Sequence record: NC_054930.1
Source: Escherichia phage PP01
DNA length: 64,000 bases
Direction: 5' to 3' (one strand)
How positions within the stretch are numbered: the first letter of the stretch is position 1; the number at the start of each line of letters is the position of its first letter. Below are positions 29,867-64,000 of this stretch, one piece after another. Under the pieces are notes generated by a model. The model was not told the origin of the DNA and did no database searches. It worked only from the letters and a program-made list of their open reading frames with translations. The position numbers and the translations under genes were made by a program.

Positions 29867-29868
29867 AT

Positions 29869-41631: not shown

Positions 41632-41674
41632 ATTATTTTCCTCTTTAATCATCAGCAGTATTGCCGATAGTTGT

Positions 41675-41703
41675 ATAGTACCATGGAAGGACAAGGATGT
41701 AAA
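41675..41703 (-). promoter_or_regulatory. Early promoter
   Basis: Minus strand GTTTACA-N17-TACTAT with A/T-rich upstream region. Confidence 0.5.
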
Positions 41704-41720
41704 CAGTTTTGTGAAAAATT

Positions 41721-41753
41721 TTTAAATTAAAAAAGGGGACCCTAGAGGTCCCC
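41721..41753 (-). terminator. Terminator downstream of gene 32
   Basis: GGGGACC-TCTAG-GGTCCCC hairpin followed by TTTTTAATTT on minus strand. Confidence 0.65.
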
Positions 41754-41775
41754 AATTAATTAGTAATATAATCTA

Positions 41776-42684: not shown

Positions 42685-42783
42685 TTTTATTTCCTTTTTA
42701 ATTTAATTAACAGTTGGTGCTATGACGATGTATGACCTCATAGCTGGTCAGTGAGATAATTATAATTTATTTATAATAAGCAA

Positions 42784-43437
42784 TTAATACTTACAAGATT
42801 TCACAGTTTCAATAAAAACTTTTTTAGCTTCCTGTGAATCGATATTTAAAATTTTTCTATAAGCTTTTAACTTTATAGAATAATTGTTCCAAACTAAATT
42901 ATCAGTTTGTTCATCATGTTTATCAATTATATTTAAAAATGAATCAAGCAAGATAAACGTTTCAAACGAAATTATGTTCGACTGAAGCAGTTTAAAAATA
43001 TAACTTGATTGAACCTTTGGATTATATTCAAAGATTTCTTTAAAAGCAGAAACTTCAACTTTTTTACTAAAATAATAAATGTTGCGAATATCTTCTTCAA
43101 ACTTAAATTTAATTTGCTTTAAGCGTCCGATATATTCACGATAAAACACAAGTGCATCAGCGTCAGAGATGTCACCAATCCAAGCATCTTGGTTAGCAAC
43201 AAGATTGCTTATAAAGATTAAAGCAAGTTCCTTTAATTTATATTTTTCTGATAACTTCTGGAAAAAATACTTATCCCTTCGCTTTTGATAAGCGGCATCA
43301 GACACCCGCATGCACCAATTATACTTAATTACATCATACTTTCCATTCATATGTTGTTTTATCATTAAGTATAATTTATAAACTGATTTACCATCAATAT
43401 ATCTTTCACCACCAGCAGGCATGCGGAGTTTAATCAT
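42784..43437 (-). CDS. 59: Helicase loader gp59
   Basis: 217 aa as in T4 gp59; synteny. Confidence 0.85.
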   Translation of the reverse strand: MIKLRMPAGGERYIDGKSVYKLYLMIKQHMNGKYDVIKYNWCMRVSDAAYQKRRDKYFFQKLSEKYKLKELALIFISNLVANQDAWIGDISDADALVFYREYIGRLKQIKFKFEEDIRNIYYFSKKVEVSAFKEIFEYNPKVQSSYIFKLLQSNIISFETFILLDSFLNIIDKHDEQTDNLVWNNYSIKLKAYRKILNIDSQEAKKVFIETVKSCKY

Positions 43438-43447
43438 AGTAGAAAAT

Positions 43448-43771
43448 CTAATGTATTAGTTTTTCACAACGAACAACAGAAGGACGTAAAAGATTTTCGT
43501 CAATGGCTTCTGACTGAATTTTTTCAATTATACCCGAAGGAATAAATTTAGCAAATTGAGTTTCAGGAATAGAATTTTCTTCTAAGAATGCTGTTGTAGC
43601 TTCAAGATAACTCATTCCAAACTCTTCTACCATTTTTTCAATAATAAATCCATTTTCTTGGCGGTCAAGAAGCTTTGCTATTTCATCCTTTTCTTTCTTA
43701 ATTGAAAGTTCTTTTTCTGAAAGACCGGTCTCATCGACCGGACGAATATCATTTAGAGAAAACTGTGTCAT
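43448..43771 (-). CDS. 33: Late transcription co-activator gp33
   Basis: About 107 aa from ATG 43771 (the track start at 43780 is a TTG); synteny 59-33-dsbA. Confidence 0.7.
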   Translation of the reverse strand: MTQFSLNDIRPVDETGLSEKELSIKKEKDEIAKLLDRQENGFIIEKMVEEFGMSYLEATTAFLEENSIPETQFAKFIPSGIIEKIQSEAIDENLLRPSVVRCEKLIH

Positions 43772-44018
43772 AAAGTTCAACTACCTCTTCAGTTTCAGCT
43801 TCAAACACATCACGGTTATCTTTATGATACAAAGCTAATAGACGATTAAACATCTTACCATCAACGCCAAGTTCATCTTTGGCACGAATTCGAATATCTT
43901 TAATCAGTTCATTATAACCGGAAATTTTCAGTTTATGATCAGATGCTTCTTTAATAAATTTAGCCAAGTCTTCGCCATGGATAGCTTCATCAAATTCAAC
44001 CATTTCTTTTTTAGCCAT
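43749..44018 (-). CDS. dsbA: dsDNA-binding late transcription enhancer DsbA
   Basis: 89 aa as in T4 DsbA; synteny. Confidence 0.7.
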   Translation of the reverse strand: MAKKEMVEFDEAIHGEDLAKFIKEASDHKLKISGYNELIKDIRIRAKDELGVDGKMFNRLLALYHKDNRDVFEAETEEVVELYDTVFSK

Positions 44019-44026
44019 TATTCACC

Positions 44027-44944
44027 TCAAAATTCATTAATGCTATTAGTTAATTTAGAAAGACCCGCTTTTACAAAATATGAATAAATTTTGCCACGCG
44101 GTGGTAATTTATATGAATTATAGTAATTCACAATGTTTGAAGCAATATTATCAGGAATATAATCAAAATCAATTAGAACTAAATTTTCTTTATAACGATT
44201 ATATTCAGATTCTGTGAGAAGCACCTTAGCTTGCTCACGGTCATTAGCAATAGCTTCAACGATTGAAGTTTTCATTGAAGGAGTTCGTTCACCTTCAACT
44301 CTGGTAAACCAAAAGTCAGATCGTACTTTAACTGAAGCAACGTTATCCTTTTTGTCGCCTTTAAGGATTTTAGTCATACAGTCAATTTCAGCAGAACCAC
44401 TTTTAATTTTAACCCATTTCTTATGCATCGGAGACCATTGCTTAACATTTGGGTATTTGTGAAGTTGAGTAAAGTCACCATCCGATGAAATGATTAAAAT
44501 CTTATGTCCTTCTAAAGAGAACTTTTTAACAAGAACAGCAATGTGGTCATCTGCTTCATACTTATCAATATCCATAACAATGTATGGCATATAAGCTTTC
44601 AATTCATCTATAACTTTATGACTGGATTCAAAATAACCTTCCCAGTCCCAAGTAGATTCTTCTCGTGCTTTTCCACGGTTTTTCTTATAATAATAAGCGA
44701 AATCACGACGCCAGTATCCAGATTTCGCGTTATCAATACACAGTACAATTTTAGTGTATCCAAGCGTTTTTGCTTTTTTGACATTAAACTTAATTGAGTT
44801 CAATATCAAATGACGAACCATTGATAAATTAATTTTTTCTTTATCTGGGAAGTTTACAAGAGCAGTTGAAAGCGCAATTTGACTAAAGTCAATAAAGCAA
44901 ATTCCTTCTTTATAGTCTTCATCTAGCATCATTTCTAAATCCAT
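44027..44944 (-). CDS. rnh: RNase H (5'-3' exonuclease/flap endonuclease)
   Basis: 305 aa from ATG 44944 (N-terminus MDLEMMLDEDYKEG); the longer track start is probably an upstream extension. Confidence 0.85.
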   Translation of the reverse strand: MDLEMMLDEDYKEGICFIDFSQIALSTALVNFPDKEKINLSMVRHLILNSIKFNVKKAKTLGYTKIVLCIDNAKSGYWRRDFAYYYKKNRGKAREESTWDWEGYFESSHKVIDELKAYMPYIVMDIDKYEADDHIAVLVKKFSLEGHKILIISSDGDFTQLHKYPNVKQWSPMHKKWVKIKSGSAEIDCMTKILKGDKKDNVASVKVRSDFWFTRVEGERTPSMKTSIVEAIANDREQAKVLLTESEYNRYKENLVLIDFDYIPDNIASNIVNYYNSYKLPPRGKIYSYFVKAGLSKLTNSINEF

Positions 44945-45006
44945 ATGAACCTCGTTCAATTAGTGAGATTTCTATTATATACCATCCAAATCTTAAAGTA
45001 AACAAG

Positions 45007-45014
45007 TATAAATA
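45007..45014 (+). promoter_or_regulatory. Late promoter (TATAAATA) for gene 34
   Basis: Exact TATAAATA about 35 nt upstream of the gene 34 ATG. Confidence 0.6.
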
Positions 45015-45048
45015 CTTATTATTGAAAACACAATAGGAGCCCGGGAGA

Positions 45049-48000
45049 ATGGCCGAGATTAAAAGAAAGTTCAGAGCAGAAGATGGTCTGGACGCAGGTG
45101 GTGATAAAATAATCAACGTAGCTTTAGCTGATCGTGCCGTAGGAACTGACGGCGTTAACGTTGATTACTTAATTCAAGAAAACACAGTTCAACAATATGA
45201 TCCAACTCGTGGATATTTAAAAGATTTTGTAATCATTTATGATAACCGCTTTTGGGCTGCTATAAATGATATTCCAAAACCAGCAGGAGCTTTTAATAGC
45301 GTACGATGGAGAGCGTTACGTACTCATGCAAACTGGACAGCTGTTTCATCAGGACCTTATCAATTAAAATCAGGCGAATCAATTTCAGTTGATACTGCAG
45401 CTGGTAATGACATTACATTTACTTTACCATCTACCCCAATTGACGGTGATACTATCGTTCTCCAAGATATTGGAGGAAAACCTGGAGTTAATCAAGTTTT
45501 AATTACAGCTCCGGTACAAAGCATTGTAAATTTTAGAGGTCAGCAAGTACGATCAGTACTAATGACTCATCCAAAATCACAGATAGTTTTAATTTTTAGT
45601 AATCGTCTGTGGCAAATGTATGTCGCTGATTATAGTAGAGAAGCTGTAGTTGTAACGCCTGCGAGTCTCTATCAGGCGCAATCAAACGATTTTATCGTAC
45701 GTAGATTTACTTCTGCTTCAGCAATTAATATTAAACTTCCAAGATTTGCTAATCATGGCGATATTATTAATTTCGTTGATTTGGATAAATTAAATCCTCT
45801 TTATCACACAATTGTTACTACATATGATGAAACAACTTCAGTACAAGAAGTTGGAACTCATTCCATTGAAGGCCGTACATCGATTGACGGTTTCTTGATG
45901 TTTGATGATAATGAGAAATTGTGGAGATTGTTTGACGGGGATAGTAAAGCACGTTTACGCATTATAACAACTAATTCTAATATTCGTCCAAATGAAGAAG
46001 TCATGGTATTTGGCGCGAATAATGGAACAACCCAAACAATTGAACTTCAGCTTCCGACTGATATTTCTGTTGGTGATACTGTCAAAATTTCCATGAATTA
46101 CATGAGAAAAGGACAAACAGTTAAAATCAAAGCTGCAGGTGAAGATAAAATTGCTTCTTCAGTTCAATTGTTGCAATTCCCAAAACGCTCAGAATATCCG
46201 CCTGAAGCTGAATGGGTAACAGTTCAAGAATTAGTTTTTAACGGTGAAACTAATTATGTTCCAGTTTTGGAGCTTGCTTATATAGAAGATTCTGATGGAA
46301 AATACTGGGTTGTACAACAAAACGTTCCAACTGTAGAAAGAGTAGATTCTTTAAATGATTCTACTAGAGCAAGATTAGGCGTAATTGCTTTAGCTACACA
46401 AGCTCAAGCTAATGCTGATTTAGAAAATTCTCCACAAAAAGAATTGGCAATTACTCCAGAAACGTTAGCTAACCGTACTGCTACTGAAACTCGCAGAGGT
46501 ATCGCAAGAATAGCAACAACTGCTCAAGTTAACCAGGATACTACATTCTCTTTTGCTGATGATATTATCATCACTCCTAAAAAGCTGAATGAAAGAACAG
46601 CTACTGAAACTCGCAGAGGTGTTGCTGAAATTGCTACGCAGCAAGAAACTAATGCAGGAACCGATGATACTACAATCATCACTCCTAAAAAGCTTCAAGC
46701 TCGTCAAGGTTCTGAATCATTATCTGGTATTGTAACCTTTGTATCTACTGCAGGTGCTACTCCAGCTTCTAGCCGTGAATTAAATGGTACGAATGTTTAT
46801 AATAAAAACACTGATAATTTAGTTGTTTCACCTAAAGCTTTGGATCAGTATAAAGCTACTCCAACACAACAAGGTGCGGTAATTTTAGCAGTTGAAAGTG
46901 AAGTAATTGCTGGACAAAGTCAGGAAGGATGGGCAAATGCTGTTGTAACGCCAGAAACGTTACATAAAAAGACATCAACTGATGGAAGAATTGGTTTAAT
47001 TGAAATTGCTACGCAAAGTGAAGTTAATACAGGAACTGATTATACTCGTGCAGTCACTCCTAAAACTTTAAATGACCGTAGAGCAACTGAAAGTTTAAGT
47101 GGTATAGCTGAAATTGCTACACAAGTTGAATTCGACGCAGGCGTCGACGATACTCGTATCTCTACGCCATTAAAAATTAAAACCAGATTTAATAGTACTG
47201 ATCGTACTTCTGTTGTTGCTCTATCTGGATTAGTTGAATCAGGAACTCTCTGGGACCATTATACCCTTAATATTCTTGAAGCAAATGAGACACAGCGTGG
47301 TACACTTCGTGTGGCTACACAAGTTGAAGCTGCTGCAGGAACATTGGATAATGTTCTAATAACTCCTAAAAAGCTTTTAGGTACTAAATCTACTGAAGCA
47401 CAGGAAGGTGTTATTAAAGTTGCAACTCAGTCTGAAACTGTGGCTGGAACGTCAGCAAATACTGCTGTATCTCCAAAAAATTTAAAATGGATTGTGCAGA
47501 GTGAACCAACTTGGGCAGCAACTACTCTGATAAGAGGGTTTGTTAAAACTTCATCTGGTTCAATTACATTCGTTGGTAATGATACCGTTGGTTCAACGCA
47601 GTCATTAGAATTATACGAGAAAAATAGTTATGCAGTATCGCCATACGAATTAAACCGTGTATTAGCAAATTATTTGCCGTTAAAAGCAAAAGCTGTAGAT
47701 AGTAATTTACTGGATGGTCTAGATTCATCTCAGTTCATTCGTAGGGATATTGCACAAACGGTTAATGGTTCACTAACCTTAACACAACAAACGAATCTGA
47801 GTGCCCCTCTTGTATCATCTAGTACTGCTACATTCGGTGGATCAGTTTCAGCAAATAGTACATTAACTATTTCTAATACTGGAACGGCAACTCGTCTGAT
47901 TTTTGAGAAAGGACCTCAAACTGGAACAAACCCGGCTCAAACGATGACAGTCAGAGTGTGGGGAAATCAATTTAGCGGGGAATCAGACACAACACGTTCT

Positions 48001-48918
48001 ACCGTATTTGAAGTTAGTGATGAAACGTCTAGTCATTTTTATTCTCAGCGTAATAAAGCTGGAAATATAACATTTAATATCAACGGTACAGTAACACCGA
48101 TAAATGTTAATGCTTCAGGAACATTGAATGCAAATGGTGTAGCAACATTTGGTAATTCAGTCACTGCAACTGGTGAAATTATTTCTCGAAGCGCAAATGC
48201 TTTCCGTGCTATTAACGGAAATTATGGTTTCATTGTTCGCAATGATGGATCAGTAACGAATTTTATGCTTACTGCATCGGGTGATCAGACTGGTGGATTT
48301 AATGGATTACGTCCTTTAGCTATTAATAATGCATCTGGCCAAGTAACGATTGGTGAAAGCTTAATCATTGCCAAAGGTGCTACTATAAATTCAGGCGGTT
48401 TGACTGTTAACTCGAGAATTCGTTCTCAGGGCACTAAAACATCTGATTTATACACCCGCGCTCCAACATCTGATACTGTAGGATTCTGGTCAATTGATAT
48501 TAACGATTCAGCCACTTATAACCAGTTCCCGGGTTATTTTAAAATGGTTGAAAAAACTAATGAAGTGACTGGGCTTCCATACTTAGAACGTGGCGAAGAA
48601 GTTAAATCTCCTGGTACATTGACTCAGTTTGGTAACACACTTGATTCGCTTTACCAAGATTGGATTACTTATCCAACGACCCCAGAAGCACGTACCACTC
48701 GCTGGACGCGTACATGGCAGAAAACTAAAAATTCTTGGTCAAGTTTTGTTCAGGTATTTGATGGAGGTAACCCTCCTCAACCTTCGGATATAGGAGCAAT
48801 CCCATCTGATAATGGAATAATAGGTAATCTTACTATTCGTGATTTCTTACGAATTGGTAATGTTCGCATTATTCCTGACCCAGTGAATAAAACTGTTAAA
48901 TTTGAATGGGTTGAATAA
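45049..48918 (+). CDS. 34: Long tail fibre proximal subunit gp34
   Basis: 1289 aa as in T4 gp34; repeated TPKKL/ATQ motifs. Confidence 0.9.
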   Translation: MAEIKRKFRAEDGLDAGGDKIINVALADRAVGTDGVNVDYLIQENTVQQYDPTRGYLKDFVIIYDNRFWAAINDIPKPAGAFNSVRWRALRTHANWTAVSSGPYQLKSGESISVDTAAGNDITFTLPSTPIDGDTIVLQDIGGKPGVNQVLITAPVQSIVNFRGQQVRSVLMTHPKSQIVLIFSNRLWQMYVADYSREAVVVTPASLYQAQSNDFIVRRFTSASAINIKLPRFANHGDIINFVDLDKLNPLYHTIVTTYDETTSVQEVGTHSIEGRTSIDGFLMFDDNEKLWRLFDGDSKARLRIITTNSNIRPNEEVMVFGANNGTTQTIELQLPTDISVGDTVKISMNYMRKGQTVKIKAAGEDKIASSVQLLQFPKRSEYPPEAEWVTVQELVFNGETNYVPVLELAYIEDSDGKYWVVQQNVPTVERVDSLNDSTRARLGVIALATQAQANADLENSPQKELAITPETLANRTATETRRGIARIATTAQVNQDTTFSFADDIIITPKKLNERTATETRRGVAEIATQQETNAGTDDTTIITPKKLQARQGSESLSGIVTFVSTAGATPASSRELNGTNVYNKNTDNLVVSPKALDQYKATPTQQGAVILAVESEVIAGQSQEGWANAVVTPETLHKKTSTDGRIGLIEIATQSEVNTGTDYTRAVTPKTLNDRRATESLSGIAEIATQVEFDAGVDDTRISTPLKIKTRFNSTDRTSVVALSGLVESGTLWDHYTLNILEANETQRGTLRVATQVEAAAGTLDNVLITPKKLLGTKSTEAQEGVIKVATQSETVAGTSANTAVSPKNLKWIVQSEPTWAATTLIRGFVKTSSGSITFVGNDTVGSTQSLELYEKNSYAVSPYELNRVLANYLPLKAKAVDSNLLDGLDSSQFIRRDIAQTVNGSLTLTQQTNLSAPLVSSSTATFGGSVSANSTLTISNTGTATRLIFEKGPQTGTNPAQTMTVRVWGNQFSGESDTTRSTVFEVSDETSSHFYSQRNKAGNITFNINGTVTPINVNASGTLNANGVATFGNSVTATGEIISRSANAFRAINGNYGFIVRNDGSVTNFMLTASGDQTGGFNGLRPLAINNASGQVTIGESLIIAKGATINSGGLTVNSRIRSQGTKTSDLYTRAPTSDTVGFWSIDINDSATYNQFPGYFKMVEKTNEVTGLPYLERGEEVKSPGTLTQFGNTLDSLYQDWITYPTTPEARTTRWTRTWQKTKNSWSSFVQVFDGGNPPQPSDIGAIPSDNGIIGNLTIRDFLRIGNVRIIPDPVNKTVKFEWVE

Positions 48919-48926
48919 GAGGTATT

Positions 48927-50042
48927 ATGGAAAAATTTATGGCAGAGTTTGGACAAGGATATGTCCAAACGCCATTTTTATCGGAAAGCAATTCAGTAAG
49001 ATACAAAATAAGCATAGCGGGTTCTTGCCCGCTTTCTACAGCAGGACCATACGTTAAATTTCAGGATAATCCTGTAGGAAGTCAAACATTTAGCGCAGGC
49101 CTTCATTTAAGAGTTTTTGACCCTTCCACGGGAGCATTAGTTGATAGTAAGTCATATGCTTTTTCGACTTCAAATGATACAACATCTGCCGCTTTTGTTA
49201 GCTTCATGAATTCTTTGACGAATAATCGAATTGTTGCTATATTAACTAACGGAAAGGTTAATTTTCCTCCTGAAGTAGTATCTTGGTTAAGAACCGCAGG
49301 AACGTCTGCTTTTCCATCTGATTCTATATTGTCAAGATTTGACGTATCATATGCTGCTTTTTACACTTCTTCTAAAAGAGCTATCGCATTAGAGCATGTT
49401 AAACTGAGTAATAGAAAAAGCACAGATGATTATCAAACTATTTTAGATGTTGTATTTGACAGTTTAGAAGATGTTGGAGCTACCGGGTTTCCAAGAAGAA
49501 CGTATGAAAGTGTTGAGCAATTCATGTCAGCGGTTGGTGGAACTAATAACGAAATTGCACGTTTACCAACTTCATCCGCGATAAGTAAACTCTCTGATTA
49601 TAATTTAATTCCTGGCGATGTTCTTTATCTTAAAGCGCAGTTATATGCTGATGCAGATTTACTTGCGCTTGGAACTACAAATATATCTATCCGTTTTTAT
49701 GATGAATTGAATGGATATATTTCTTCAACACACGCTGAGTTTACTGGACAAGCTGGGTCATGGGAATTAAAGGAAGATTATGTAGTTATTCCAGAAAATG
49801 CAGTAGGATTTACGATATATGCACAAAGAACTGCTCAAGCTGGTCAAGGTGGCATGAGGAATTTAAGCTTTTCGGAAGTGTCAAGAAATGGAAGTATTTC
49901 GAAACCTGCTGAATTTGGCGTCAATGGTATTCGAGTTAATTATGTCTGTGAATCTGCTTCACCTCCAGATATAATGGTACTTCCTACACAAGCATCGTCT
50001 AAAACTGGTAAAGTGTTTGGACAAGAATTTAGAGAAGTTTAA
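48927..50042 (+). CDS. 35: Long tail fibre hinge protein gp35
   Basis: 371 aa; synteny. Confidence 0.85.
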   Translation: MEKFMAEFGQGYVQTPFLSESNSVRYKISIAGSCPLSTAGPYVKFQDNPVGSQTFSAGLHLRVFDPSTGALVDSKSYAFSTSNDTTSAAFVSFMNSLTNNRIVAILTNGKVNFPPEVVSWLRTAGTSAFPSDSILSRFDVSYAAFYTSSKRAIALEHVKLSNRKSTDDYQTILDVVFDSLEDVGATGFPRRTYESVEQFMSAVGGTNNEIARLPTSSAISKLSDYNLIPGDVLYLKAQLYADADLLALGTTNISIRFYDELNGYISSTHAEFTGQAGSWELKEDYVVIPENAVGFTIYAQRTAQAGQGGMRNLSFSEVSRNGSISKPAEFGVNGIRVNYVCESASPPDIMVLPTQASSKTGKVFGQEFREV

Positions 50043-50047
50043 ATTGA

Positions 50048-50071
50048 GGGAGCCTTCGGGTTCCCTTTTTC
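50048..50071 (+). terminator. Terminator after gene 35
   Basis: GGGAGCC-TTCG-GGTTCCC hairpin followed by TTTTT. Confidence 0.55.
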
Positions 50072-50073
50072 TT

Positions 50074-50081
50074 TATAAATA
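50074..50081 (+). promoter_or_regulatory. Late promoter (TATAAATA) for gene 36
   Basis: Exact TATAAATA 24 nt upstream of the gene 36 ATG. Confidence 0.6.
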
Positions 50082-50104
50082 CTATTAAAATAAAGGGGCA
50101 TACA

Positions 50105-50761
50105 ATGGCTGATTTAAAAGTAGGTTCAACAACTGGAGGCTCTGTCATTTGGCATCAAGGAAATTTTCCATTGAATCCAGCCGGTGACGATGTACTCTAT
50201 AAATCATATAAAATATATTCAGAATATAATAAGCCACAAGCTGTTGATAACGATTTCGTTTCTAAAGCTAATGGTGGTACTTATTTAAATAAAGTAATTT
50301 TTAATAAAGGAATGACTGTTCCTGGCGCAGGGTCAGGCGATAACGGTATTTTTGCTGGTCCTGGTGATAGTGCCACGTATGATACTACAAATATGGATAT
50401 TGTTTCGTGGTATGGTATTGGTTTTAAATCATCACAGGGTTCAGCGGGTAGAACTGTAGTAATTAACACGCGAAATGGAGATATTAGCTCAAAGGGTGTA
50501 ATTGAAGCATCACAAATACGCGCAACTTCATTATCTCCAGTAAATAATTATGACCTTACACGGAAAGATTATGTTGATGGAGCAATAAATATTGTTACAG
50601 CAAACGCAAACTCTAGGGTATTACGCTCTGGAGACACTATGACAGGAAATTTAACTGCGCCAAACCTTTTTTCACAGAATCCTGCATCTCAACCCTCACA
50701 TGTTCCACGATTTGATCAAATTGTTATTAAGGATTCTGTTCAAGATTTCGGCTATTATTAA
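50105..50761 (+). CDS. 36: Long tail fibre distal connector gp36
   Basis: 218 aa; synteny. Confidence 0.85.
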   Translation: MADLKVGSTTGGSVIWHQGNFPLNPAGDDVLYKSYKIYSEYNKPQAVDNDFVSKANGGTYLNKVIFNKGMTVPGAGSGDNGIFAGPGDSATYDTTNMDIVSWYGIGFKSSQGSAGRTVVINTRNGDISSKGVIEASQIRATSLSPVNNYDLTRKDYVDGAINIVTANANSRVLRSGDTMTGNLTAPNLFSQNPASQPSHVPRFDQIVIKDSVQDFGYY

Positions 50762-50769
50762 GAGGACTT

Positions 50770-54910
<4,141 letters not shown>

Positions 54911-54940
54911 TTTGAATAAATATCCTTAAAAGGAGGGTCT

Positions 54941-55597
54941 ATGGCAGCACCTAGAATATCATTTTCGCCCTCTGATATTCTGTTGGGTGTTCTAGATCGC
55001 TTGTTCAAAGATAACGCTACCGGGAAGGTTCTTGCTTCCCGGGTAGCTGTCGTAATTCTTTTGTTTATAATGGCGATTGTTTGGTATAGGGGAGATAGTT
55101 TCTTTGAGTACTATAAGCAATCAAAGTATGAAACATACAGTGAAATTATTGAAAAGGAAAGAAATGCACGCTTTGAATCTGTCGCCCTGGAACAACTCCA
55201 GATAGTTCATATATCATCTGAGGCAGACTTTAGTGCGGTATATTCTTTCCGCCCTAAAAACTTAAACTATTTTGTTGATATTATAGCATATGAAGGAAAA
55301 TTACCTTCAACAATAAGCGAAAAATCACTTGGAGGATATCCTGTTGATAAAACTATGGATGAATATACAGTTCATTTAAATGGACGTCATTATTATTCCG
55401 ACTCAAAATTTGCTTTTTTACCAACTAAAAAGCCTACTCCCGAAATAAACTACATGTACAGTTGTCCATATTTCAATTTGGATAATATCTATGCTGGAAC
55501 AATAACTATGTACTGGTATAGAAATGATCATATAAGTAATGACCGCCTTGAATCAATATGTGCTCAGGCGGCCAGAATATTAGGAAGGGCTAAATAA
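54941..55597 (+). CDS. t: Holin T
   Basis: 218 aa as in T4 T; single N-terminal TM segment VAVVILLFIMAIVWY; SD AAGGAGGG. Confidence 0.85.
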   Translation: MAAPRISFSPSDILLGVLDRLFKDNATGKVLASRVAVVILLFIMAIVWYRGDSFFEYYKQSKYETYSEIIEKERNARFESVALEQLQIVHISSEADFSAVYSFRPKNLNYFVDIIAYEGKLPSTISEKSLGGYPVDKTMDEYTVHLNGRHYYSDSKFAFLPTKKPTPEINYMYSCPYFNLDNIYAGTITMYWYRNDHISNDRLESICAQAARILGRAK

Positions 55598-55870
55598 TTA
55601 TTTGTTCGTATACATCTCTAGATATCGATATACACCCTCAAAACCCTCGTTGAATTCGTCGATGAGGGTTTTCTTATCTTCTTGAGTTAATTCAGAAACA
55701 ATTTTACGGAATGAATTCTGATTTAATTTTCTACCTTCATGCGTTACTCCAATCTCATTCAGAAATGCAATAAAATTAGCACGATTTTCAACAATATCTT
55801 CTCTGGAAAATTTAATCAAAATAGACGCAACAGTAATAATTTCACGAACTGTATCAATATTTTTATTCAT
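55598..55870 (-). CDS. asiA: Anti-sigma70 factor AsiA
   Basis: 90 aa; sequence MNKNIDTVREIITVASILIKF... matches T4 AsiA as I recall it. Confidence 0.85.
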   Translation of the reverse strand: MNKNIDTVREIITVASILIKFSREDIVENRANFIAFLNEIGVTHEGRKLNQNSFRKIVSELTQEDKKTLIDEFNEGFEGVYRYLEMYTNK

Positions 55871-55882
55871 TAACTATACCAC

Positions 55883-56035
55883 TCAATTAGTTGACTTTAT
55901 TATAGTATCATCAGACGCTTGATTTGTAAACTGGTCTGTGTTATTTTCTTCAAAAATTTTTTCTACGAATTCCTTGAACGACTTACGTTCCTGAGCTACA
56001 TTATGCTCGATTACCTTTTCAAGATTATGACTCAT
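55883..56035 (-). CDS. Small hypothetical protein, 50 aa (not in ORF track)
   Basis: ATG overlaps the stop of the upstream ORF (ATGA). Confidence 0.4.
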   Translation of the reverse strand: MSHNLEKVIEHNVAQERKSFKEFVEKIFEENNTDQFTNQASDDTIIKSTN

Positions 56036-56310
56036 TCGAAATAATCTTCAATTTCATAATCATGGACATAAATCATTATAGTTTTTAATACATCATCAAT
56101 ACTTTTTCCTGGAGCTGGAATTACGTAAAAATACCCTGCTTTTGAGAGGTCTTTATAAGTTCCAATCAAGAAATCATTATTCTCAAGATGTAGTTCTTCA
56201 ACTAATTCATTAACAATTGAGTGGTATAAATTTGGTAGAAACTTATATAGCTTTTCTAGAATATCAATTTTGATTGTGTATTGAACCACGGACTGAGAAT
56301 CAATAATCAT
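56032..56310 (-). CDS. arn: Probable Arn (anti-restriction, DNA-mimic inhibitor of McrBC)
   Basis: 92 aa, strongly acidic with no Arg; position between asiA and motA as in T4. Confidence 0.55.
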   Translation of the reverse strand: MIIDSQSVVQYTIKIDILEKLYKFLPNLYHSIVNELVEELHLENNDFLIGTYKDLSKAGYFYVIPAPGKSIDDVLKTIMIYVHDYEIEDYFE

Positions 56311-56393
56311 AGACCTTCCCCTTATGTTTCTGTTTGCGATTAGATTCTTTAAACGCTTTCTTCTTATCCTTATGAACAGAAGCTTTATTAAAA

Positions 56394-56612
56394 TTATGTT
56401 TTGCGACTAAATTGTTCATAATGCTGAATTACCTCTCTTAAACATTTGCATGTGAATGAAAACTTTTTAGCTACACCACATTCAAATATATGTTCTCTTA
56501 AATCGTTTGTATCGGTATATCCCATCTCAACAATAAAATGCCGTATTAGATTTTTATCTTTATCATTGAGAGAATTAAAATAATCAGATTTTGAATTAAT
56601 TTCCCTGGCCAA
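56394..56612 (-). CDS. Hypothetical protein
   Basis: 72-aa ORF; probable TTG start with GAAGGTGA SD. Confidence 0.4.
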   Translation of the reverse strand: MAREINSKSDYFNSLNDKDKNLIRHFIVEMGYTDTNDLREHIFECGVAKKFSFTCKCLREVIQHYEQFSRKT

Positions 56613-56892
56613 ATTGAATCACCTTCAGTTGACGTTTTAGCTCTTTTATCATCTCTTCGTTCATCGCAATATAAAGATCGCGTAAAGCAGGTTTTAGCAT
56701 TCCATTTACTGGAGAACTAAATGGACATACATAATCTTTTCCTACAAGCTTTTTGGCGAATTCCATATCGCAGAACTTAAATCCCGGCTCATTGGTATAA
56801 ATTCCCCAATTAGTTGACATCATTTTATTGGCATATTCTAGTGCCTGGATTTGATTAGTAATTCCATCAATTTGAAACTTTTTAATATTCAT
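56596..56892 (-). CDS. Hypothetical protein
   Basis: 98-aa ORF with ATG start. Confidence 0.5.
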   Translation of the reverse strand: MNIKKFQIDGITNQIQALEYANKMMSTNWGIYTNEPGFKFCDMEFAKKLVGKDYVCPFSSPVNGMLKPALRDLYIAMNEEMIKELKRQLKVIQFGQGN

Positions 56893-57359
56893 TAGTAAAG
56901 GTCCTCGGAGTAAAGTTCTTTTTCACTACCACCACGTTCAATACGCACTTGTCCAGCGTAAGTTGCAATAATCATTGCTTCTTCACGTGTCCAGTAATTG
57001 CTATACTGGTCAATAAATCCTTGGTCTTCACCACAAACATGGTCTGATACAAGTTTATCACTTACCTGGTCAAGAACTTCAGCCATATCTTTAGAATAAT
57101 GACGAGCACCAGGAATAACCAGAGTCCCACCATCTTTTAACTTAAAGCGGTTGGCTGCACACACAATTCGACGTTGATATTTTTCATTATTGTTCCAATG
57201 AGCTACTTGCCAACAGATTTCAGGAACCTCTTCTAAAACATCCTCTTCCGTATATTCGGTGTAGTCGCCATAGGCCTGTAATTTAGCTGCTAGACTTTCT
57301 GGAGTTTCACGTAATAAAGCCAGGTCTAATAATTCAAGACGCTCTTTGAAGGTTTTCAT
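56892..57359 (-). CDS. Hypothetical protein
   Basis: 155-aa ORF with ATG start. Confidence 0.5.
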
Positions 57360-57507
57360 TTGGTTTCCTCAACACTTTTAATTTTTATAGCTTGTTTAGA
57401 ACTTTCAAAGCATTGACAATATACTCTTACCGCATCAAACTGGTTGGCCGCTTTAAGATGGACTACACCTTCGCCGTTATAAAATTCTACGACAATTTTA
57501 AATGTTT

Positions 57508-57837
57508 TCATTTAAACCATCCTTTAATACGTTGCCATAAAGTTTTCTGTTGAGCTTTGTTAACACCAATTGAGCGAATAACTGGTTGAGATTCATGGAA
57601 TTCTTTATAATCAGCAAGGTAAATTTCGTAAGCTGAATCCATAAAGGAACTTATAGCTGCCATGAAATTATTGCGAATACCTACTGGAGCATCTTTACTT
57701 TCACGAATAATCATGTATTTACCAGTCTTAATCTTTACAATAGTTCCAAGATAAGCCCCATGGTACCAGATGTCCCATCCCTCTTGAGTGGGTTCTGCAC
57801 AACGACGAAGTTCATTAACAATTTCTAACTTGTTCAT
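57508..57837 (-). CDS. Hypothetical protein (motA.1-like)
   Basis: 109-aa ORF immediately downstream of motA. Confidence 0.5.
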   Translation of the reverse strand: MNKLEIVNELRRCAEPTQEGWDIWYHGAYLGTIVKIKTGKYMIIRESKDAPVGIRNNFMAAISSFMDSAYEIYLADYKEFHESQPVIRSIGVNKAQQKTLWQRIKGWFK

Positions 57838-57847
57838 TATTTATTCC

Positions 57848-58483
57848 TCACAGTTCAGATGCTACAGTGATTACTGCTTCAATGTTTTCTGCCGAGCGTT
57901 TAATGTCAAGATACACATTACCGTTTTTAGCGATTTTACATGACATTCCGATATCAGTAAATTTCTGAATATGATGTTCCATCATTTTGTATCCAAAAAT
58001 TCGCATATTTCCATTATTGTTAATTTCAAAATTACGAATTCCGTGAGTGCGTTTTTCTAAAATGGCAAGATAATTACTACGATAAGTTTCAACCTTTTTA
58101 AGAACAAATCCATTTTCATCTAAAAGTTTTAACATGAGGTCTTTATCTTCTTCCATATCAGAAGTAATCTCACGAGCTTTACGAGTTGCTCGTTTTTTCA
58201 GCAGTTCCGGAGCATTTTCCTGTGCATATAAAGTTGCTGCATTTGAAATAATATCCTGAGCTTCACCAGTAATGATTAATCCATCACCAGATTTCTCCAC
58301 CAGGCCTTTTTTAATCAATACCCCAATATTACTATTAACTACTGCGTTACCTAAATCTGGATGCACCTCACGAACTTCTGCAGCTGTAATGAAATCTTTC
58401 TTAGCAATGGTAATTAAAATCGCAGCAGTTTTTTCATTCAGAACATCGTTAGAAGCTTTGATGATGTAAGTTACTTTAGACAT
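57848..58483 (-). CDS. motA: Middle-transcription activator MotA
   Basis: 211 aa as in T4 MotA; early promoter upstream. Confidence 0.85.
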   Translation of the reverse strand: MSKVTYIIKASNDVLNEKTAAILITIAKKDFITAAEVREVHPDLGNAVVNSNIGVLIKKGLVEKSGDGLIITGEAQDIISNAATLYAQENAPELLKKRATRKAREITSDMEEDKDLMLKLLDENGFVLKKVETYRSNYLAILEKRTHGIRNFEINNNGNMRIFGYKMMEHHIQKFTDIGMSCKIAKNGNVYLDIKRSAENIEAVITVASEL

Positions 58484-58524
58484 TTTCTAATCTCCGTAAT
58501 TCTGTATCAGTAGTTGATAGTTGT

Positions 58525-58553
58525 ATAGTACCACAGTATGCTTTGGTTGTAAA
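58525..58553 (-). promoter_or_regulatory. Early promoter for motA
   Basis: Minus strand GTTTACA-N17-TACTAT with upstream A/T-rich region. Confidence 0.55.
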
Positions 58554-58570
58554 CCGTTTTGTGAAAAAAA

Positions 58571-58605
58571 TTTTAAAATAAAAAAGGGAGAGCCGAGGCT
58601 CTCCC
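58571..58605 (-). terminator. Intrinsic terminator
   Basis: GGGAGAGCC-TC-GGCTCTCCC hairpin followed by TTTTTTATTTT on minus strand. Confidence 0.65.
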
Positions 58606-58610
58606 TAAAA

Positions 58611-58760
58611 TTACTGTTCAAACGCGATTACTATCATGATAACACGCTGAATACCAAAAGCAAGAAGACCTCCTGCTACGGCTGGAACAACACCTAAACC
58701 CGCCAGTAAAATGGCACCAGATACTAACGCAGCGCTTGTAATACCTACGAATGGACTCAT
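58611..58760 (-). CDS. Small hydrophobic membrane peptide, 49 aa (not in ORF track)
   Basis: ATG with GAGGAAA SD; Gly/Ala/Leu-rich TM-like sequence; terminator directly downstream. Confidence 0.5.
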   Translation of the reverse strand: MSPFVGITSAALVSGAILLAGLGVVPAVAGGLLAFGIQRVIMIVIAFEQ

Positions 58761-60085
58761 TTGATTTCCTCTAAATCTTTGGTGTATTCTGTAACTACAT
58801 CAGTAGTTTTCCAATATTCGTTTTCTTCTTTCTTAGCTTTAGCTTCTTCGGCAAGTTTCTTTGCTTCATCAGAAGTCATGTGAAAAATATTCATTCCAAC
58901 TAGTTTATCAACATAAGAAGAATACATGTCAATTTTAGAAAGTTCTTCGGTCAGTTCTTTGCGAGTTTTACCCTGTACAACGATTTCACCTGAAATTACT
59001 TTCTTAATGAAATGTGCCTTGGCAAAGGCTAAACGAAATGCTGATTCAGTTTCTTTGATTTTGTTATCAATTCGTTTTTGGACATAAGTTTTACGAACTT
59101 CAACGAAGTCTTTGATTAAATCGACTACGTTATCGTAAACTTGTAGTTTTCCTTTCTCATTAATAACCGTAATATTCTGAGAACGACGCTCAATCAACCC
59201 GAAGTCTTTCATAATTTTTGCATGACGTTCTTCTTCATTATCGCTCAAAGAATATTCTTTGCGGAATTTAACTTTGAATCCAAAACCATGCTCACCGCAA
59301 GCATCATCCCATGTAATGAAGCCTTTATCTTCAAGTGGGTCTAAGATTTTACTCACATAAGTTTCACGATCATACTTATACGGAATCTCAGTGATATGCA
59401 TTTGAGTTCGTGAAGTAAACTTATATGTTCCACGAATTTCATATTGCCCATCAATCTCAACGACTTCACCACGAAATTCTGGGAATTCTACCTTCGGTTT
59501 AGTTACTTTCTTTCCTTGAAGAGCTTGCAGTACAGCTTTCTTAACAGAAGAAACACTATGAGGAAGAATGTAAGTTGCATAACCAGTTGCAATACCGGAA
59601 ACGCCATTAAGAAGAACGGTAGGAATAATAGGCAAATAGAAAGCAGGCGGAATGTGTTCTTTATCTTGATGTACCGGAGCATATTCAGTATCTTTATATA
59701 CGTTATAGAAATTTTTACTTACACGAGCAAAAATATAACGACTTGCCGCGGCCTTTTGAACAGTACGAGAACCAAAGTTTCCTTGGCCATCTAACAAAGG
59801 AAAGTTATTATTCCAAGTGTTAGCCATCAAAGCACCTGCATCTTGTGCAGAGTTTTCGCCATGGTGATATCCAAGGTCCGCTACACCACCTGCAATAGAA
59901 GCGAGTTTGTGAAACTTATCTTTATTTCCTCGTGCCAAATCAAGAGCTCGAGCAATAACAAATCGTTGAACTGGCTTAAATCCATCAATCATATTTGGAA
60001 TGGCACGATTTTCAACCGTGTACATAGCATAAGCCAATGCTTCATTATCAATGATACTTTTTAAATCGCGATTATTCAGTTGCAT
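58757..60085 (-). CDS. 52: DNA topoisomerase II medium subunit gp52
   Basis: 442 aa as in T4 gp52; synteny. Confidence 0.9.
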   Translation of the reverse strand: MQLNNRDLKSIIDNEALAYAMYTVENRAIPNMIDGFKPVQRFVIARALDLARGNKDKFHKLASIAGGVADLGYHHGENSAQDAGALMANTWNNNFPLLDGQGNFGSRTVQKAAASRYIFARVSKNFYNVYKDTEYAPVHQDKEHIPPAFYLPIIPTVLLNGVSGIATGYATYILPHSVSSVKKAVLQALQGKKVTKPKVEFPEFRGEVVEIDGQYEIRGTYKFTSRTQMHITEIPYKYDRETYVSKILDPLEDKGFITWDDACGEHGFGFKVKFRKEYSLSDNEEERHAKIMKDFGLIERRSQNITVINEKGKLQVYDNVVDLIKDFVEVRKTYVQKRIDNKIKETESAFRLAFAKAHFIKKVISGEIVVQGKTRKELTEELSKIDMYSSYVDKLVGMNIFHMTSDEAKKLAEEAKAKKEENEYWKTTDVVTEYTKDLEEIK

Positions 60086-60089
60086 AAAT

Positions 60090-60230
60090 TTACCATACTA
60101 GTGAATGTAGTGCCATAATAACATCAGAAATGAAAAGCACGACTTGAATTAATCCGAACATTACTCCATAATATAATGCTACCAATAAAGCAGCAAGGGC
60201 TAATGAATAGCCCAAGATTTTCTTAATCAT
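60090..60230 (-). CDS. Small hydrophobic membrane peptide, 46 aa
   Basis: ATG start; single TM-like segment; not in ORF track. Confidence 0.4.
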   Translation of the reverse strand: MIKKILGYSLALAALLVALYYGVMFGLIQVVLFISDVIMALHSLVW

Positions 60231-60381
60231 TAGTAGATAACAACACAAATGTTAAATATGCACACATACCCTGAGCTAAAGCTTGCGAAAACACACTGCT
60301 GGCATCAATACAGATAGTTAAAACACATGCTACTATCCAACAAATAAATGAAATAACTCCTAATAATTTTGCAATATTCAT
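60223..60381 (-). CDS. Small hydrophobic membrane peptide, 52 aa (possibly ac)
   Basis: ATG with GAGGAAA SD; Cys-rich TM-like sequence; position between stp and gene 52. Confidence 0.45.
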   Translation of the reverse strand: MNIAKLLGVISFICWIVACVLTICIDASSVFSQALAQGMCAYLTFVLLSTND

Positions 60382-60388
60382 ATTTTCC

Positions 60389-60469
60389 TCACTGGCGTCC
60401 GAAGACGCCTTTAGTTTTAAGATTATTACGATAAAACTGCATCACGTGTTCGTTGTGAAAATTACTCAT
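60389..60469 (-). CDS. stp: Stp peptide, 26 aa
   Basis: Translation [26 protein letters not shown] matches T4 Stp as I recall it; not in ORF track. Confidence 0.75.
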
Positions 60470-60927
60470 TAATATGCCTGCAAAACGAATTTAAAGTTAT
60501 CAGCCAACATACGGTTCATTTCTTCAAGTGTTTGATACTCAGAATGATGATTACGAGTAAACGCAAAAGCTAACTGTCCTTTTCCAAATCCCGTCGTCAA
60601 AGGTTTCATCTTAGAAGCAGGCAGATAAAATACTGTGTATGGAACATTGTTATTTGCAATAGTACGTGCAAGTTGAGACCGTCGTTGACGAATATGACTT
60701 AGAACTGCACTGAATCCTTGCTTAGAACGCTGATTACCTACATAAAATCGTGCAGACACACATGGATTACTAAATGGACGACCATCTAATTTACTTACTA
60801 AAAAATAAAATCCAGGTTTAGATAAAATATCTTTATGCGGAGTTCCCAAAAACCACTCACCACCCTTGATTGTACCAATAACAGTAGCGCCTGCATTGTT
60901 CAGATCAGTAACAGTCATGTATTTCAT
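60469..60927 (-). CDS. ndd: Nucleoid disruption protein Ndd
   Basis: 152 aa from ATG 60927 (SD AGAGGAAA); the track start is an upstream non-ATG extension; synteny. Confidence 0.6.
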
Positions 60928-60987
60928 ATTAATTTCCTCTAAATTATTTTCTACTCCAAGGCCGCATGAATACACACGGCCATTAAA

Positions 60988-61203
60988 TTAATCGTCGCAG
61001 TCGACGCTCAATTCCCAGAATTCTTCTACGGTATAAGTTTCAGTATCATTTTCAATACAGAAACGTTCATTACTGTTATTTGCTAAAGTAGCGTTAACTG
61101 TCATTTTCTCGCTAGTGCTCTTAAGAGGTGAAATACGAATTAACTGATCACCGTTATCTAAACAAAAAATTTCACCAACTTTTACATCTTTAAAAATTTT
61201 CAT
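60988..61203 (-). CDS. Hypothetical protein (ndd.1-like)
   Basis: 71-aa ORF with GAGGTGA SD. Confidence 0.5.
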   Translation of the reverse strand: MKIFKDVKVGEIFCLDNGDQLIRISPLKSTSEKMTVNATLANNSNERFCIENDTETYTVEEFWELSVDCDD

Positions 61204-61211
61204 AATTCACC

Positions 61212-61322
61212 TCAAGGAGTATAAAATCCAAATGCAGTTGTTGACCATCCCATCCAATATGGGAAATTTGCACCAATGTAAAACATAAGAATATAAAACC
61301 AACCGCTCAGCAAATTCATCAT
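61212..61322 (-). CDS. Small hydrophobic peptide, 36 aa
   Basis: ATGATGA-coupled to the upstream ORF; aromatic-rich TM-like sequence; not in ORF track. Confidence 0.35.
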   Translation of the reverse strand: MMNLLSGWFYILMFYIGANFPYWMGWSTTAFGFYTP

Positions 61323-61516
61323 TTTACACCATTCCAAATTGTTTCAACCACGGATTTTAAACCATTTTGATGAATATCCATTCCGACTACCGCCATCAAA
61401 TAAATTCCAACTACAACTGAACCTAAGGCAAAAATCAGCATGAAAATGAATAAAGCCGGAAAAATATTATCGAAAAACCATTCAATAAATGTAAAAGCAC
61501 TGCGTTTACGCTTCAT
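61319..61516 (-). CDS. Small membrane protein, 65 aa
   Basis: ATG 61516 with GAGGAAAAT SD; TM segment IFPALFIFMLIFALGSVVVGIYLMAVV; the track start is a TTG. Confidence 0.45.
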   Translation of the reverse strand: MKRKRSAFTFIEWFFDNIFPALFIFMLIFALGSVVVGIYLMAVVGMDIHQNGLKSVVETIWNGVK

Positions 61517-61523
61517 ATTTTCC

Positions 61524-61637
61524 TCACATAAATCCAAAGTAAACGTTTAATACATCAATCATTAAAACGATTGGGAATATACTCAAAACTACTAGTATTA
61601 TAACTACATTCCATATAGCTTTAATAATCTTTTTCAT
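61524..61637 (-). CDS. Small membrane peptide, 37 aa
   Basis: ATG 61637 with GGAGGAACAGAAA SD; TM segment VVIILVVLSIFPIVLMI; the longer track ORF overlaps its own promoter. Confidence 0.45.
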   Translation of the reverse strand: MKKIIKAIWNVVIILVVLSIFPIVLMIDVLNVYFGFM

Positions 61638-61665
61638 TTTCTGTTCCTCCGTAGTTGATAGGGTA

Positions 61666-61694
61666 ATAGTACCACGGAAGAACAGTCTTGTAAA
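61666..61694 (-). promoter_or_regulatory. Early promoter
   Basis: Minus strand GTTTACA-N17-TACTAT. Confidence 0.5.
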
Positions 61695-61911
61695 CAACTT
61701 TTTAAAAATATTCGTAATAAATGTGAATACCAACTACTACCGCTGAAACCTGTGCAACCCACCACGCACAAGCAATAAGTACAGAATTCATAATTTTCAT
61801 AATAACCTCATTACAAAAGTAAATGTTAAACAAATTAATGGAATACTAACTAACCAAACAAAACACCACCACAATGAACTCATAGTTCAATCTCAACGAT
61901 TTTCATTTTAC

Positions 61912-62118
61912 TCAATAATCCGCTAAAAGATCAACGATTGCATCACGAAGACACTTATTCGCAATACGTTTAAGAGCAATTTCAGTTTCTGGAGCATTTT
62001 GAATAATCATCGAATTCAACTCAGCCTCAGCAAATTGAAGTTCTTTAACTAGTTCAGCTTTATATTTCCCTTGCCCTTTCTTAGCTTTTGCTCGTTTTAA
62101 TTCAGCTGTAGTAAACAT
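61912..62118 (-). CDS. Hypothetical protein, 68 aa
   Basis: ATG 62118 downstream of an early promoter; the track start lies upstream of the promoter. Confidence 0.45.
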   Translation of the reverse strand: MFTTAELKRAKAKKGQGKYKAELVKELQFAEAELNSMIIQNAPETEIALKRIANKCLRDAIVDLLADY

Positions 62119-62152
62119 TTTATTCTCCAAATCCGTATCAGTTGATAGTTGT

Positions 62153-62181
62153 ATAGTACCACGGTCCTTGTGGTATGTAAA
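62153..62181 (-). promoter_or_regulatory. Early promoter
   Basis: Minus strand GTTTACA-N17-TACTAT. Confidence 0.5.
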
Positions 62182-62198
62182 CTGTTTTGTGAAATTTT

Positions 62199-62756
62199 TT
62201 AAATGGAAAGATACCATCCGTTGTAGTTGCTTTTTCTTACAACCTTACGAAGGTCTTCTCTGTCACCGATGAACTTCGGAGTGTACTGGATGACACCTGG
62301 ATGAATTTCTTTAGTGTTGAATATAATTATACAGTCAGCGACTTGATGATTTAGAATGGGCCCTAGATTTATTCCAGAACCATATGGATACTCTCCGCTG
62401 CATCCCGTTGTTACCGAAATCCAACGTGAGTCAGTTTGATGTGTCTTAACTTCTACACGAAGCCCACAGTATTTTGGATGTGCTAAAACATCCCATGCAT
62501 ACGTGTACGGATCATCGACATCTTCTTGGCCTTTATTGACATATCCGCTTAGCCAATCTGCCACAAAAAACTCTGCGTACACAGCGATACGGCATCTTTC
62601 GATAACTTCTGCCTTATCCTGATTTGGGTTCTGTTTTAAAGAGTATCTTGCAGTATCAGCAATTTTGACCTTCATTTCATTGGTTAAATCGTTGTTCGAT
62701 AGAGTAAATGTTGGAATCTGAAATAGTCTCTGTAACCCAGGATTCGTTTTCTGCAT
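62199..62756 (-). CDS. denB: Endonuclease IV
   Basis: 185 aa as in T4 DenB; position next to rIIB. Confidence 0.75.
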   Translation of the reverse strand: MQKTNPGLQRLFQIPTFTLSNNDLTNEMKVKIADTARYSLKQNPNQDKAEVIERCRIAVYAEFFVADWLSGYVNKGQEDVDDPYTYAWDVLAHPKYCGLRVEVKTHQTDSRWISVTTGCSGEYPYGSGINLGPILNHQVADCIIIFNTKEIHPGVIQYTPKFIGDREDLRKVVRKSNYNGWYLSI

Positions 62757-62805
62757 TTAAACTTTCCTTTATGTCGGAATCACTGATATTCATATAAATC
62801 ATAAT

Positions 62806-62833
62806 TTCTCTTAAAACAAAAGGGCCGAAGCCC
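62806..62833 (-). terminator. Terminator hairpin
   Basis: GGGC-TTCG-GCCC hairpin followed by U-rich run on minus strand. Confidence 0.45.
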
Positions 62834-62838
62834 TTATT

Positions 62839-63033
62839 TTATTTGAATTGTGCAATTCTTTTCTCTAAACAGTCAGCGTAAGATTTCATTGAGATGAACT
62901 GCGAAAGTAGCAGTTCTTGCTCAACTGCGCTAACTGTTAGAAACTTTGCGCTTTCTAAAAATTTACTCAGTGCATTAATTTTGAGCATTAATTGATCGTA
63001 TTCTTCTTTTACTCGTGCTTGATAACCTAACAT
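62839..63033 (-). CDS. Hypothetical protein (rIIB-adjacent)
   Basis: 64-aa ORF with AAGGAAAA SD. Confidence 0.5.
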   Translation of the reverse strand: MLGYQARVKEEYDQLMLKINALSKFLESAKFLTVSAVEQELLLSQFISMKSYADCLEKRIAQFK

Positions 63034-63061
63034 AATTTTCCTTAGTTAAGGGCCGAAGCCC

Positions 63062-64000
63062 TTATTTAAATTGTTCAGTAACGTCTTCAACTACTTCGTA
63101 TTGGCAGGTACGCATTTTAGCATCGTTATAATCAATCGGAATTGATACCACATCGCGAGGATGCACTTTAACTTTTACGACTCGGCTGGTTGAACTGCCA
63201 AAGTGACGAATATAAGATTTAGAACACACATGCAGACCACGTGAACAAGTTTGTGTATCATCGTCATTCACACGAGTACGTGGCATTTTAACTACTTTAC
63301 CCGGACTGTTATCAAAGGTGTTTGAGTGACAGTCAAAGTAATTGCTGCGAACTACTTTCCAAGCATAGAAGTAACCATCTTCTGTAATTTCAATATCGTT
63401 TGCTACCAAGAAATCAAAGAGTCGAGATACCGCTTTTTGGCTTGGGTTTTCCAGTAGATTTTCCAAGAACGGAAAATAAAATTCAAAGTTTTCGCCTTTT
63501 TCCATCGAGTCAAGAATACGATCAACTAAACCGGACCGCAATTCGATATTTTGATAGAACAAGCTTCCACCTTCAATTCGAACATCACCGGAAATATATT
63601 TTTCAACAGCGCGACGAACATTAATTTTTTGTGCCGCTTCTTCCAACTTATCTGCTACGAGCAGATTAAGAATTTCCTGGAAGTTTGAATGAGTATTAGG
63701 AGTTGCATTATAAGTTACACCGTCAACAGTAATTGAAATGAATTTTTTAGATGCATTCCAAATAATGTCAGATTTAGCAACTGGAGCAATAACTGCATCG
63801 CTATTAACTTTAACTGTAATATCACCGCTAATAGTAACTTTAGGGCGTTTAGCTTCTTCAGCATTTTTCAAAACACGACGGATTGTGTCAACCGATACAC
63901 CTTGCCAATCAGCCAATTCCTGTTGGGTGTAATTACCGCTTGAATACAGTTTAACAATTTCAGCTTGTTCGTTTTTGGTCAGGCATTTAATATTGTACAT
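63062..64000 (-). CDS. rIIB: rIIB protein (start codon at window edge)
   Basis: 312 aa; N-terminus MYNIKCLTKNEQAEIVKLYSSGNYTQQELADW matches T4 rIIB as I recall it. Confidence 0.9.
   Translation of the reverse strand: MYNIKCLTKNEQAEIVKLYSSGNYTQQELADWQGVSVDTIRRVLKNAEEAKRPKVTISGDITVKVNSDAVIAPVAKSDIIWNASKKFISITVDGVTYNATPNTHSNFQEILNLLVADKLEEAAQKINVRRAVEKYISGDVRIEGGSLFYQNIELRSGLVDRILDSMEKGENFEFYFPFLENLLENPSQKAVSRLFDFLVANDIEITEDGYFYAWKVVRSNYFDCHSNTFDNSPGKVVKMPRTRVNDDDTQTCSRGLHVCSKSYIRHFGSSTSRVVKVKVHPRDVVSIPIDYNDAKMRTCQYEVVEDVTEQFK

Follow-up and report, generated by a model that had tools for sequence, protein, structure and literature searches.

Does a 26-codon reading frame between ndd and ac in Escherichia phage PP01 encode Stp, the T4 peptide that activates the host PrrC anticodon nuclease, and does the phage also retain the enzymes that mend the resulting damage? 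The question was addressed in a 64,000-nucleotide stretch of PP01 DNA (NC_054930.1), the whole of which is referred to below as the window. A preliminary description of this DNA had recognised the frame as stp and had proposed that, together with pseT and rnlA, it makes up a complete trigger-and-repair set.

Identity and position of stp

The frame lies where the preliminary description had placed it, but its strand had been omitted there; it is the minus strand. Read on that strand, 60389..60469 runs from ATG to TGA and translates as the Stp peptide, whereas the plus-strand frame over the same interval is without a start codon and specifies a different peptide. The relevant genes are, in plain coordinates:

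60389..60469, minus strand: stp, 26 codons followed by TGA; the product, Stp, counters type IC restriction and activates PrrC
60469..60927, minus strand: ndd, nucleoid disruption protein (PF06591, 315.8 bits)
60223..60381, minus strand: ac, acridine resistance, downstream of stp (phrog_2501)
58757..60085, minus strand: gene 52

A 26-codon ORF is by itself no evidence of a gene, because 42 ORFs of at least 20 amino acids, counted over six frames, overlap the 3-kb stretch around stp. Chance ORFs being this abundant, the case for stp as a gene therefore rests on comparison with other sequences. Alignment with T4 Stp, the check that had been proposed, showed all 26 residues to be the same as in the annotated T4 stp product (NP_049878). 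The DNA differs from that of T4 at four nucleotides, all of them synonymous third-base changes (codons 4, 5, 12, and 15). Pfam family PF08133 matched positions 1-26 of the 26 residues at 75.3 bits (cut-off 25; E 2e-21), and the PHROG family phrog_6763 was matched at E 4e-21 (4.4e-21); in a tblastn search of 2.3 Gb of phage DNA, matches that were 100% identical had E values of about 1e-10 to 3e-10. In the T4 reference, NC_000866, stp is found at 165505..165585 and is annotated as 'activator of host PrrC lysyl-tRNA endonuclease'. Complete identity, an end-to-end family match, and a position corresponding to that in T4 thus uphold the assignment of the product as T4 Stp. As every residue is shared with T4 Stp, no position required for activity is changed, the N-terminal 18 and positions 4-14 included, and nothing in the sequence contradicts the identification. 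The ORF is almost certainly the Tequatrovirus orthologue of T4 stp; its PrrC-trigger function, and repair by Pnkp and Rnl1, would be as in T4.

The genes 52 / 52.1 / ac / stp / ndd follow one another as in T4, each of them on the minus strand, and stp sits between ndd and ac, as it does in the T-even early region. The TAA stop codon of ndd and the ATG of stp share one base (TAATG), likewise in T4, and nothing upstream of stp resembles a Shine-Dalgarno sequence except a weak AGG; together, the overlap and the weakness of this element suggest that stp is probably translated by coupling to ndd. A sigma-70 promoter scan of 59900..63000 returned 12 sites where 12.0 were expected by chance, so the scan is uninformative on stp transcription. 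The gene would be transcribed with the minus-strand early genes, and its delayed-early timing is known from the literature (PMC3014915). A tRNA scan of the whole window (1..64000) found no tRNA genes, and an Rfam scan over the same range found no family at its gathering score; no RNA gene is therefore tied to the stp locus. On a separate point, the window covers the nrdB region, where T4 has a group I intron, and, judging from the T4 map, td should presumably fall in this part of the genome as well; a group I intron was not detected in the window, in that no Rfam family reached the gathering score.

Conservation and distribution of stp

By nucleotide comparison, the window belongs to a Tequatrovirus and not to T4 itself, being about 98% identical to many sequenced phages. 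The best match to the 52-ndd region was 98.1% identical (vB-Eco-KMB40), and 566 phage records matched this region overall. With Stp as a tblastn query, 421 records had a match of at least 99% identity; lowering the threshold to 80% raised the number to 571, which is about as many as have the locus. The gene is effectively a core gene of Tequatrovirus and occurs in essentially every record of the genus, so that its retention in PP01 is the rule and unremarkable.

Homologues from 12 other phages were taken for comparison with the Stp of the window. At the level of codons, stp is shown to be under purifying selection: across codons 1-18, comparison with T4, T2, TOPO13, G50, and K1ind2 gave no nonsynonymous differences in any pair and 4-9 synonymous codon differences. 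The largest of these values, nine synonymous and no nonsynonymous, is that for K1ind2, a Kagunavirus and thus a siphovirus of a different family. A core of S-x-[FHW]-H-N-[EG]-H-[VI]-M-Q-[FWL]-[YH]-R-x-x-[LFI]-K is kept in 12 of the 12 homologues; the C-terminal tail is less constant, the T4 type ending in GVFGRQ and the T2 type in NFGILGFKK. A conserved core followed by a variable tail fits the published genetics of T4 stp, where loss-of-function suppressor mutations cluster at residues 4-14 (Uzan and Miller, PMC3014915), and removal of the eight C-terminal codons only moderately lowers activity (PMC3014915). The N-terminal 18 residues were also described as nearly invariant in T4 relatives (PMC3014915).

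Homologues with the same N-terminal core were also observed in siphoviruses, namely in Drexlerviridae (Rtp, P818, and Henu7), Kagunavirus (K1ind2 and ZCEC5), and Caminolopintovirus. The loci, each numbered within its own extracted sequence, are:

1444..2524 of extract L007: Rtp Stp locus (Drexlerviridae)
2501..3591 of extract L011: Henu7 Stp locus (Drexlerviridae)
2501..4956 of extract L010: P818 Stp locus (Drexlerviridae)
2501..2578 of extract L008: K1ind2 Stp homologue (Kagunavirus)
783..875 of extract L009: ZCEC5 Stp homologue (Kagunavirus), the frame being open from 771 with a probable ATG at 783
2459..2581 of extract L012: STGO-35-1 Stp homologue

In the three Drexlerviridae, a gene annotated as 'polynucleotide kinase' lies 0.45-1.8 kb from the Stp homologue; by Pfam, however, it encodes a stand-alone HAD_PNKP 3'-phosphatase domain with the kinase domain absent. 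Regarding an Rnl1-type ligase in the siphoviruses that have Stp, no 45-50-kb record was present in a spread of 30 matches drawn from 1853 tblastn matches.

Function of Stp

The mechanism given in the preliminary description agrees with the accepted model (PMC3014915, PMC1484252, PMC12707154, PMC12409349). In the account of Penner (1995) as cited in PMC3014915, Stp inhibits the type IC enzymes EcoprrI and EcoR124I and spares type IA. Inhibition of EcoprrI in a prr+ host unmasks latent PrrC, which cuts the anticodon loop of tRNA-Lys; the cleaved tRNA-Lys is mended by Pnkp and Rnl1. Strains that are prr+ restrict phage with a mutated pseT or rnlA, and this restriction is suppressed by mutations in stp (PMC3014915, PMC1484252, PMC12409349). 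How Stp inhibits EcoprrI was described in a 2025 review as 'unknown, perhaps through physical interaction' (PMC12707154).

By its identity with T4 Stp, the PP01 peptide would be expected to attach to type IC restriction enzymes (EcoprrI and EcoR124I) and block them. In a prr+ host, inhibition of EcoprrI would then free latent PrrC, leading to tRNA-Lys cleavage; Pnkp, the product of pseT, would heal the tRNA-Lys ends, Rnl1, the product of rnlA, would then reseal them, and wild-type phage would escape as a result of this repair. We infer EcoprrI binding, PrrC activation, and repair in vivo from the T4 literature, on the basis of 100% identity in the case of Stp and of near-identity in the cases of Rnl1 and the Pnkp kinase domain, and with the activity of the divergent Pnkp phosphatase assumed. 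The full circuit needs the host locus hsdM-hsdS-prrC-hsdR, and the window consists of phage DNA only.

It may be asked whether Stp is maintained for a purpose unrelated to type IC anti-restriction, through a different host target, its known activities being side effects. The DNA of T-even phages is modified with glucosyl-hydroxymethylcytosine and is already largely immune to type I enzymes, and the N-terminal 18 residues of Stp are extremely conserved across Straboviridae and Kagunavirus. Furthermore, stp is near-universal in Tequatrovirus even though hosts carry prr only optionally and sporadically (PMC1484252), and the stated uncertainty over the mode of action on EcoprrI also leaves room for such a proposal. 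On the other hand, the reported selectivity for EcoprrI and EcoR124I over type IA enzymes speaks against it, and nothing in the window points to another target of Stp. Anti-restriction would also be directly useful to the siphoviruses with homologues if their DNA is unmodified, as is assumed. A different primary role for Stp is, in our judgement, unlikely.

The repair genes pseT and rnlA

Both repair genes are found, at full length and with their catalytic residues kept, where the preliminary description had located them; their strand is minus:

30259..31164, minus strand: pseT, polynucleotide 5'-kinase / 3'-phosphatase (Pnkp), 301 amino acids
32913..34037, minus strand: rnlA (gene 63), RNA ligase 1 (Rnl1), 374 amino acids

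A distance of 26-30 kb separates them from stp, with which they share a strand; the three genes thus belong together functionally but do not form an operon. With stp, pseT, and rnlA all intact in the window, the claim that the trigger and the repair functions are retained as a set holds.

Rnl1 is the simpler of the two enzymes. It is identical to T4 Rnl1 (PDB 2C5U; E 2e-253) at 369 of 374 residues, and contains the Pfam domains RNA_lig_T4_1 (adenylyltransferase) and the Rnl1-specific C-terminal T4_Rnl1_C. The KEDG of motif I is kept (K99, E100, D101, and G102). The five substitutions with respect to T4 are R141Q, E148K, V181I, T200A, and I217V, none of which is at a residue that we take to be catalytic.

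Pnkp matched the T4 Pnkp structure PDB 1LTQ at E 4e-169. Its Pfam domains are a P-loop kinase, AAA_33, over residues 6-149 and the DxDxT HAD phosphatase HAD_PNKP over residues 160-301, the latter matched at full length with 188.8 bits. In T4 numbering, PP01 Pnkp retains K15, S16, D35, R38, R126, D165, D167, T169, R176, S211, R213, D254, K258, D277, and D278; among these, catalytic roles have been described for K15, D35, and R126 in the kinase and for D165, D167, S211, K258, and D278 in the phosphatase (PMC3592404). The protein is nevertheless a mosaic: whereas the kinase domain is 98.7% identical to that of T4, residues 160-260 of the phosphatase are just 57% identical. This phosphatase-domain allele is rare. 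About 32 phage records carry it at more than 80% identity, eight of them at 99% or more (e.g., phage W143), and it is present at 90% or more in about 24 other records; in comparison, about 966 records, T4 included, are at 60-80%.

A 106-amino-acid ORF at 31161..31481, also on the minus strand, was noted between pseT and pseT.1; it is a full-length match to phrog_2364, of unknown function, and the T4 reference is without a counterpart at this place.

Two readings of the divergent phosphatase can be considered. The first is that it records an arms race over end healing, either an escape from a host blocker or an adaptation to the lesions of another anticodon nuclease. We would give this only a slim chance, but, if true, the trigger-and-repair set would have been not only retained but retuned, with Stp frozen while the healing enzyme changed. 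The second is that the trigger is present but repair is impaired, with 2',3'-cyclic phosphate ends healed poorly by the variant enzyme. The low identity of residues 160-260 relative to the kinase domain and the scarcity of the allele both lend themselves to such a proposal. Yet the reading frame is intact, HAD_PNKP is matched over its full length, and every catalytic or metal-binding residue is present, D165, D167, T169, S211, K258, D277, and D278 among them; in addition, the presence of the allele in about 24 other records with at least 90% identity fits a functional variant. Since its catalytic residues are intact and it recurs in other phages, the allele is unlikely to cripple repair, and a PP01 in which Stp triggers damage that Pnkp heals only poorly is very improbable. 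Repair as in T4 remains the preferred reading.

The hairpin at the 3' end of stp

The last codons of stp also contain a potential RNA structure:

60394..60409, minus strand: C(UUCG)G tetraloop hairpin, GGCGUC-UUCG-GACGCC, within stp codons 21-26

The hairpin ends 5 nt ahead of GAGG, the ribosome-binding site of ac. It is kept in T4, in RB68, and in the Gapriverviruses VR7 and TH22, the last with a compensating U-G wobble; it is missing from the T2-type allele and from the siphovirus homologues, even those that encode GVFGK. The 121-nt region around the hairpin gave an unexceptional fold (z = -1.8). An intrinsic terminator on the sense strand was considered and rejected: the hairpin is not a canonical sense terminator because the sequence behind it on the coding strand, AGUGAGGAAAAUAUG, is no U-run. 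A terminator-like score was obtained on the plus (antisense) strand alone, on which the hairpin precedes TTTAGTTTTA, and for this reason the hairpin may act as a terminator of antisense transcription. In the record of phage G50, only a 'putative terminator' is annotated at the stp locus, with no CDS.

It could thus be supposed that the stp ORF is a chance frame and that the conserved element is the hairpin, which between ndd and ac would terminate transcription or stabilise the mRNA; the hairpin is real and conserved, the G50 annotation is of this kind, and short chance ORFs are common (the 42 noted above). This proposal is extremely improbable, however, as the hairpin makes up just 16 of the 81 nt of stp and has no U-run behind it on the coding strand, its surroundings fold unexceptionally, codons 1-18 have accumulated only synonymous differences even with respect to a siphovirus, the peptide core is present in T2-type alleles and siphovirus homologues where the hairpin is absent, plasmid-expressed T4 Stp suffices to elicit anticodon nuclease (PMC3014915), and missense suppressors in T4 stp exist (PMC3014915). 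The preferable view is that stp is a protein-coding gene, to whose T4-type allele the hairpin adds a second layer.

Standing of the finding and annotation of stp

At the level of sequence, every family feature tested was found in stp and in the accompanying T4-type pseT and rnlA. The finding is correct but already known, and it is the standard state for Tequatrovirus. Stp, PrrC, Pnkp, and Rnl1 constitute a classic circuit of defence and counter-defence that was worked out from the 1980s on, and PP01 carries the standard version of its phage side; as a discovery, the finding carries little weight.

Its practical value lies in annotation, because stp is routinely missed by gene callers and length thresholds. 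The gene is unannotated in most deposited T4-like genomes: in a sample of 41 T-even-type records that encode Stp, taken as a spread of the tblastn matches, stp was named in two, a 'hypothetical protein' that may be stp was given in six, and about 33 had no CDS at this position other than the ndd that overlaps by one base. Any survey of anti-restriction genes or of triggers of defence will therefore undercount stp if it depends on deposited annotation.

Comparison with known systems

The closest known system is that of T4 itself. PP01 Stp resembles T4 Stp (PF08133, 'anticodon nuclease activator'; phrog_6763) in its sequence, in its location between ndd and ac, in the one-base overlap with ndd, and in the 3' C(UUCG)G hairpin. 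The gene is unlike that of T4 only in the synonymous substitutions at codons 4, 5, 12, and 15, and the PP01 genome around it is about 98% identical to other Tequatroviruses and not 100% identical to T4. Rnl1 is likewise alike in domain architecture, in the catalytic residues checked, and in its 369/374 identity. Pnkp shares with its T4 counterpart the domain architecture, all of the catalytic residues checked, and a 98.7% identical kinase domain, but its phosphatase domain is divergent, one residue is deleted, and a Met is added at the N terminus.

Outside the T4 group, nothing in the window relates to PARIS or Ronin. Both belong to the host and respond to other phage proteins (PARIS senses Ocr), and they are conceptual relatives only; they are nonetheless alike in logic, in that the inhibition of a restriction-modification-type complex leads to the release of an abortive-infection effector.
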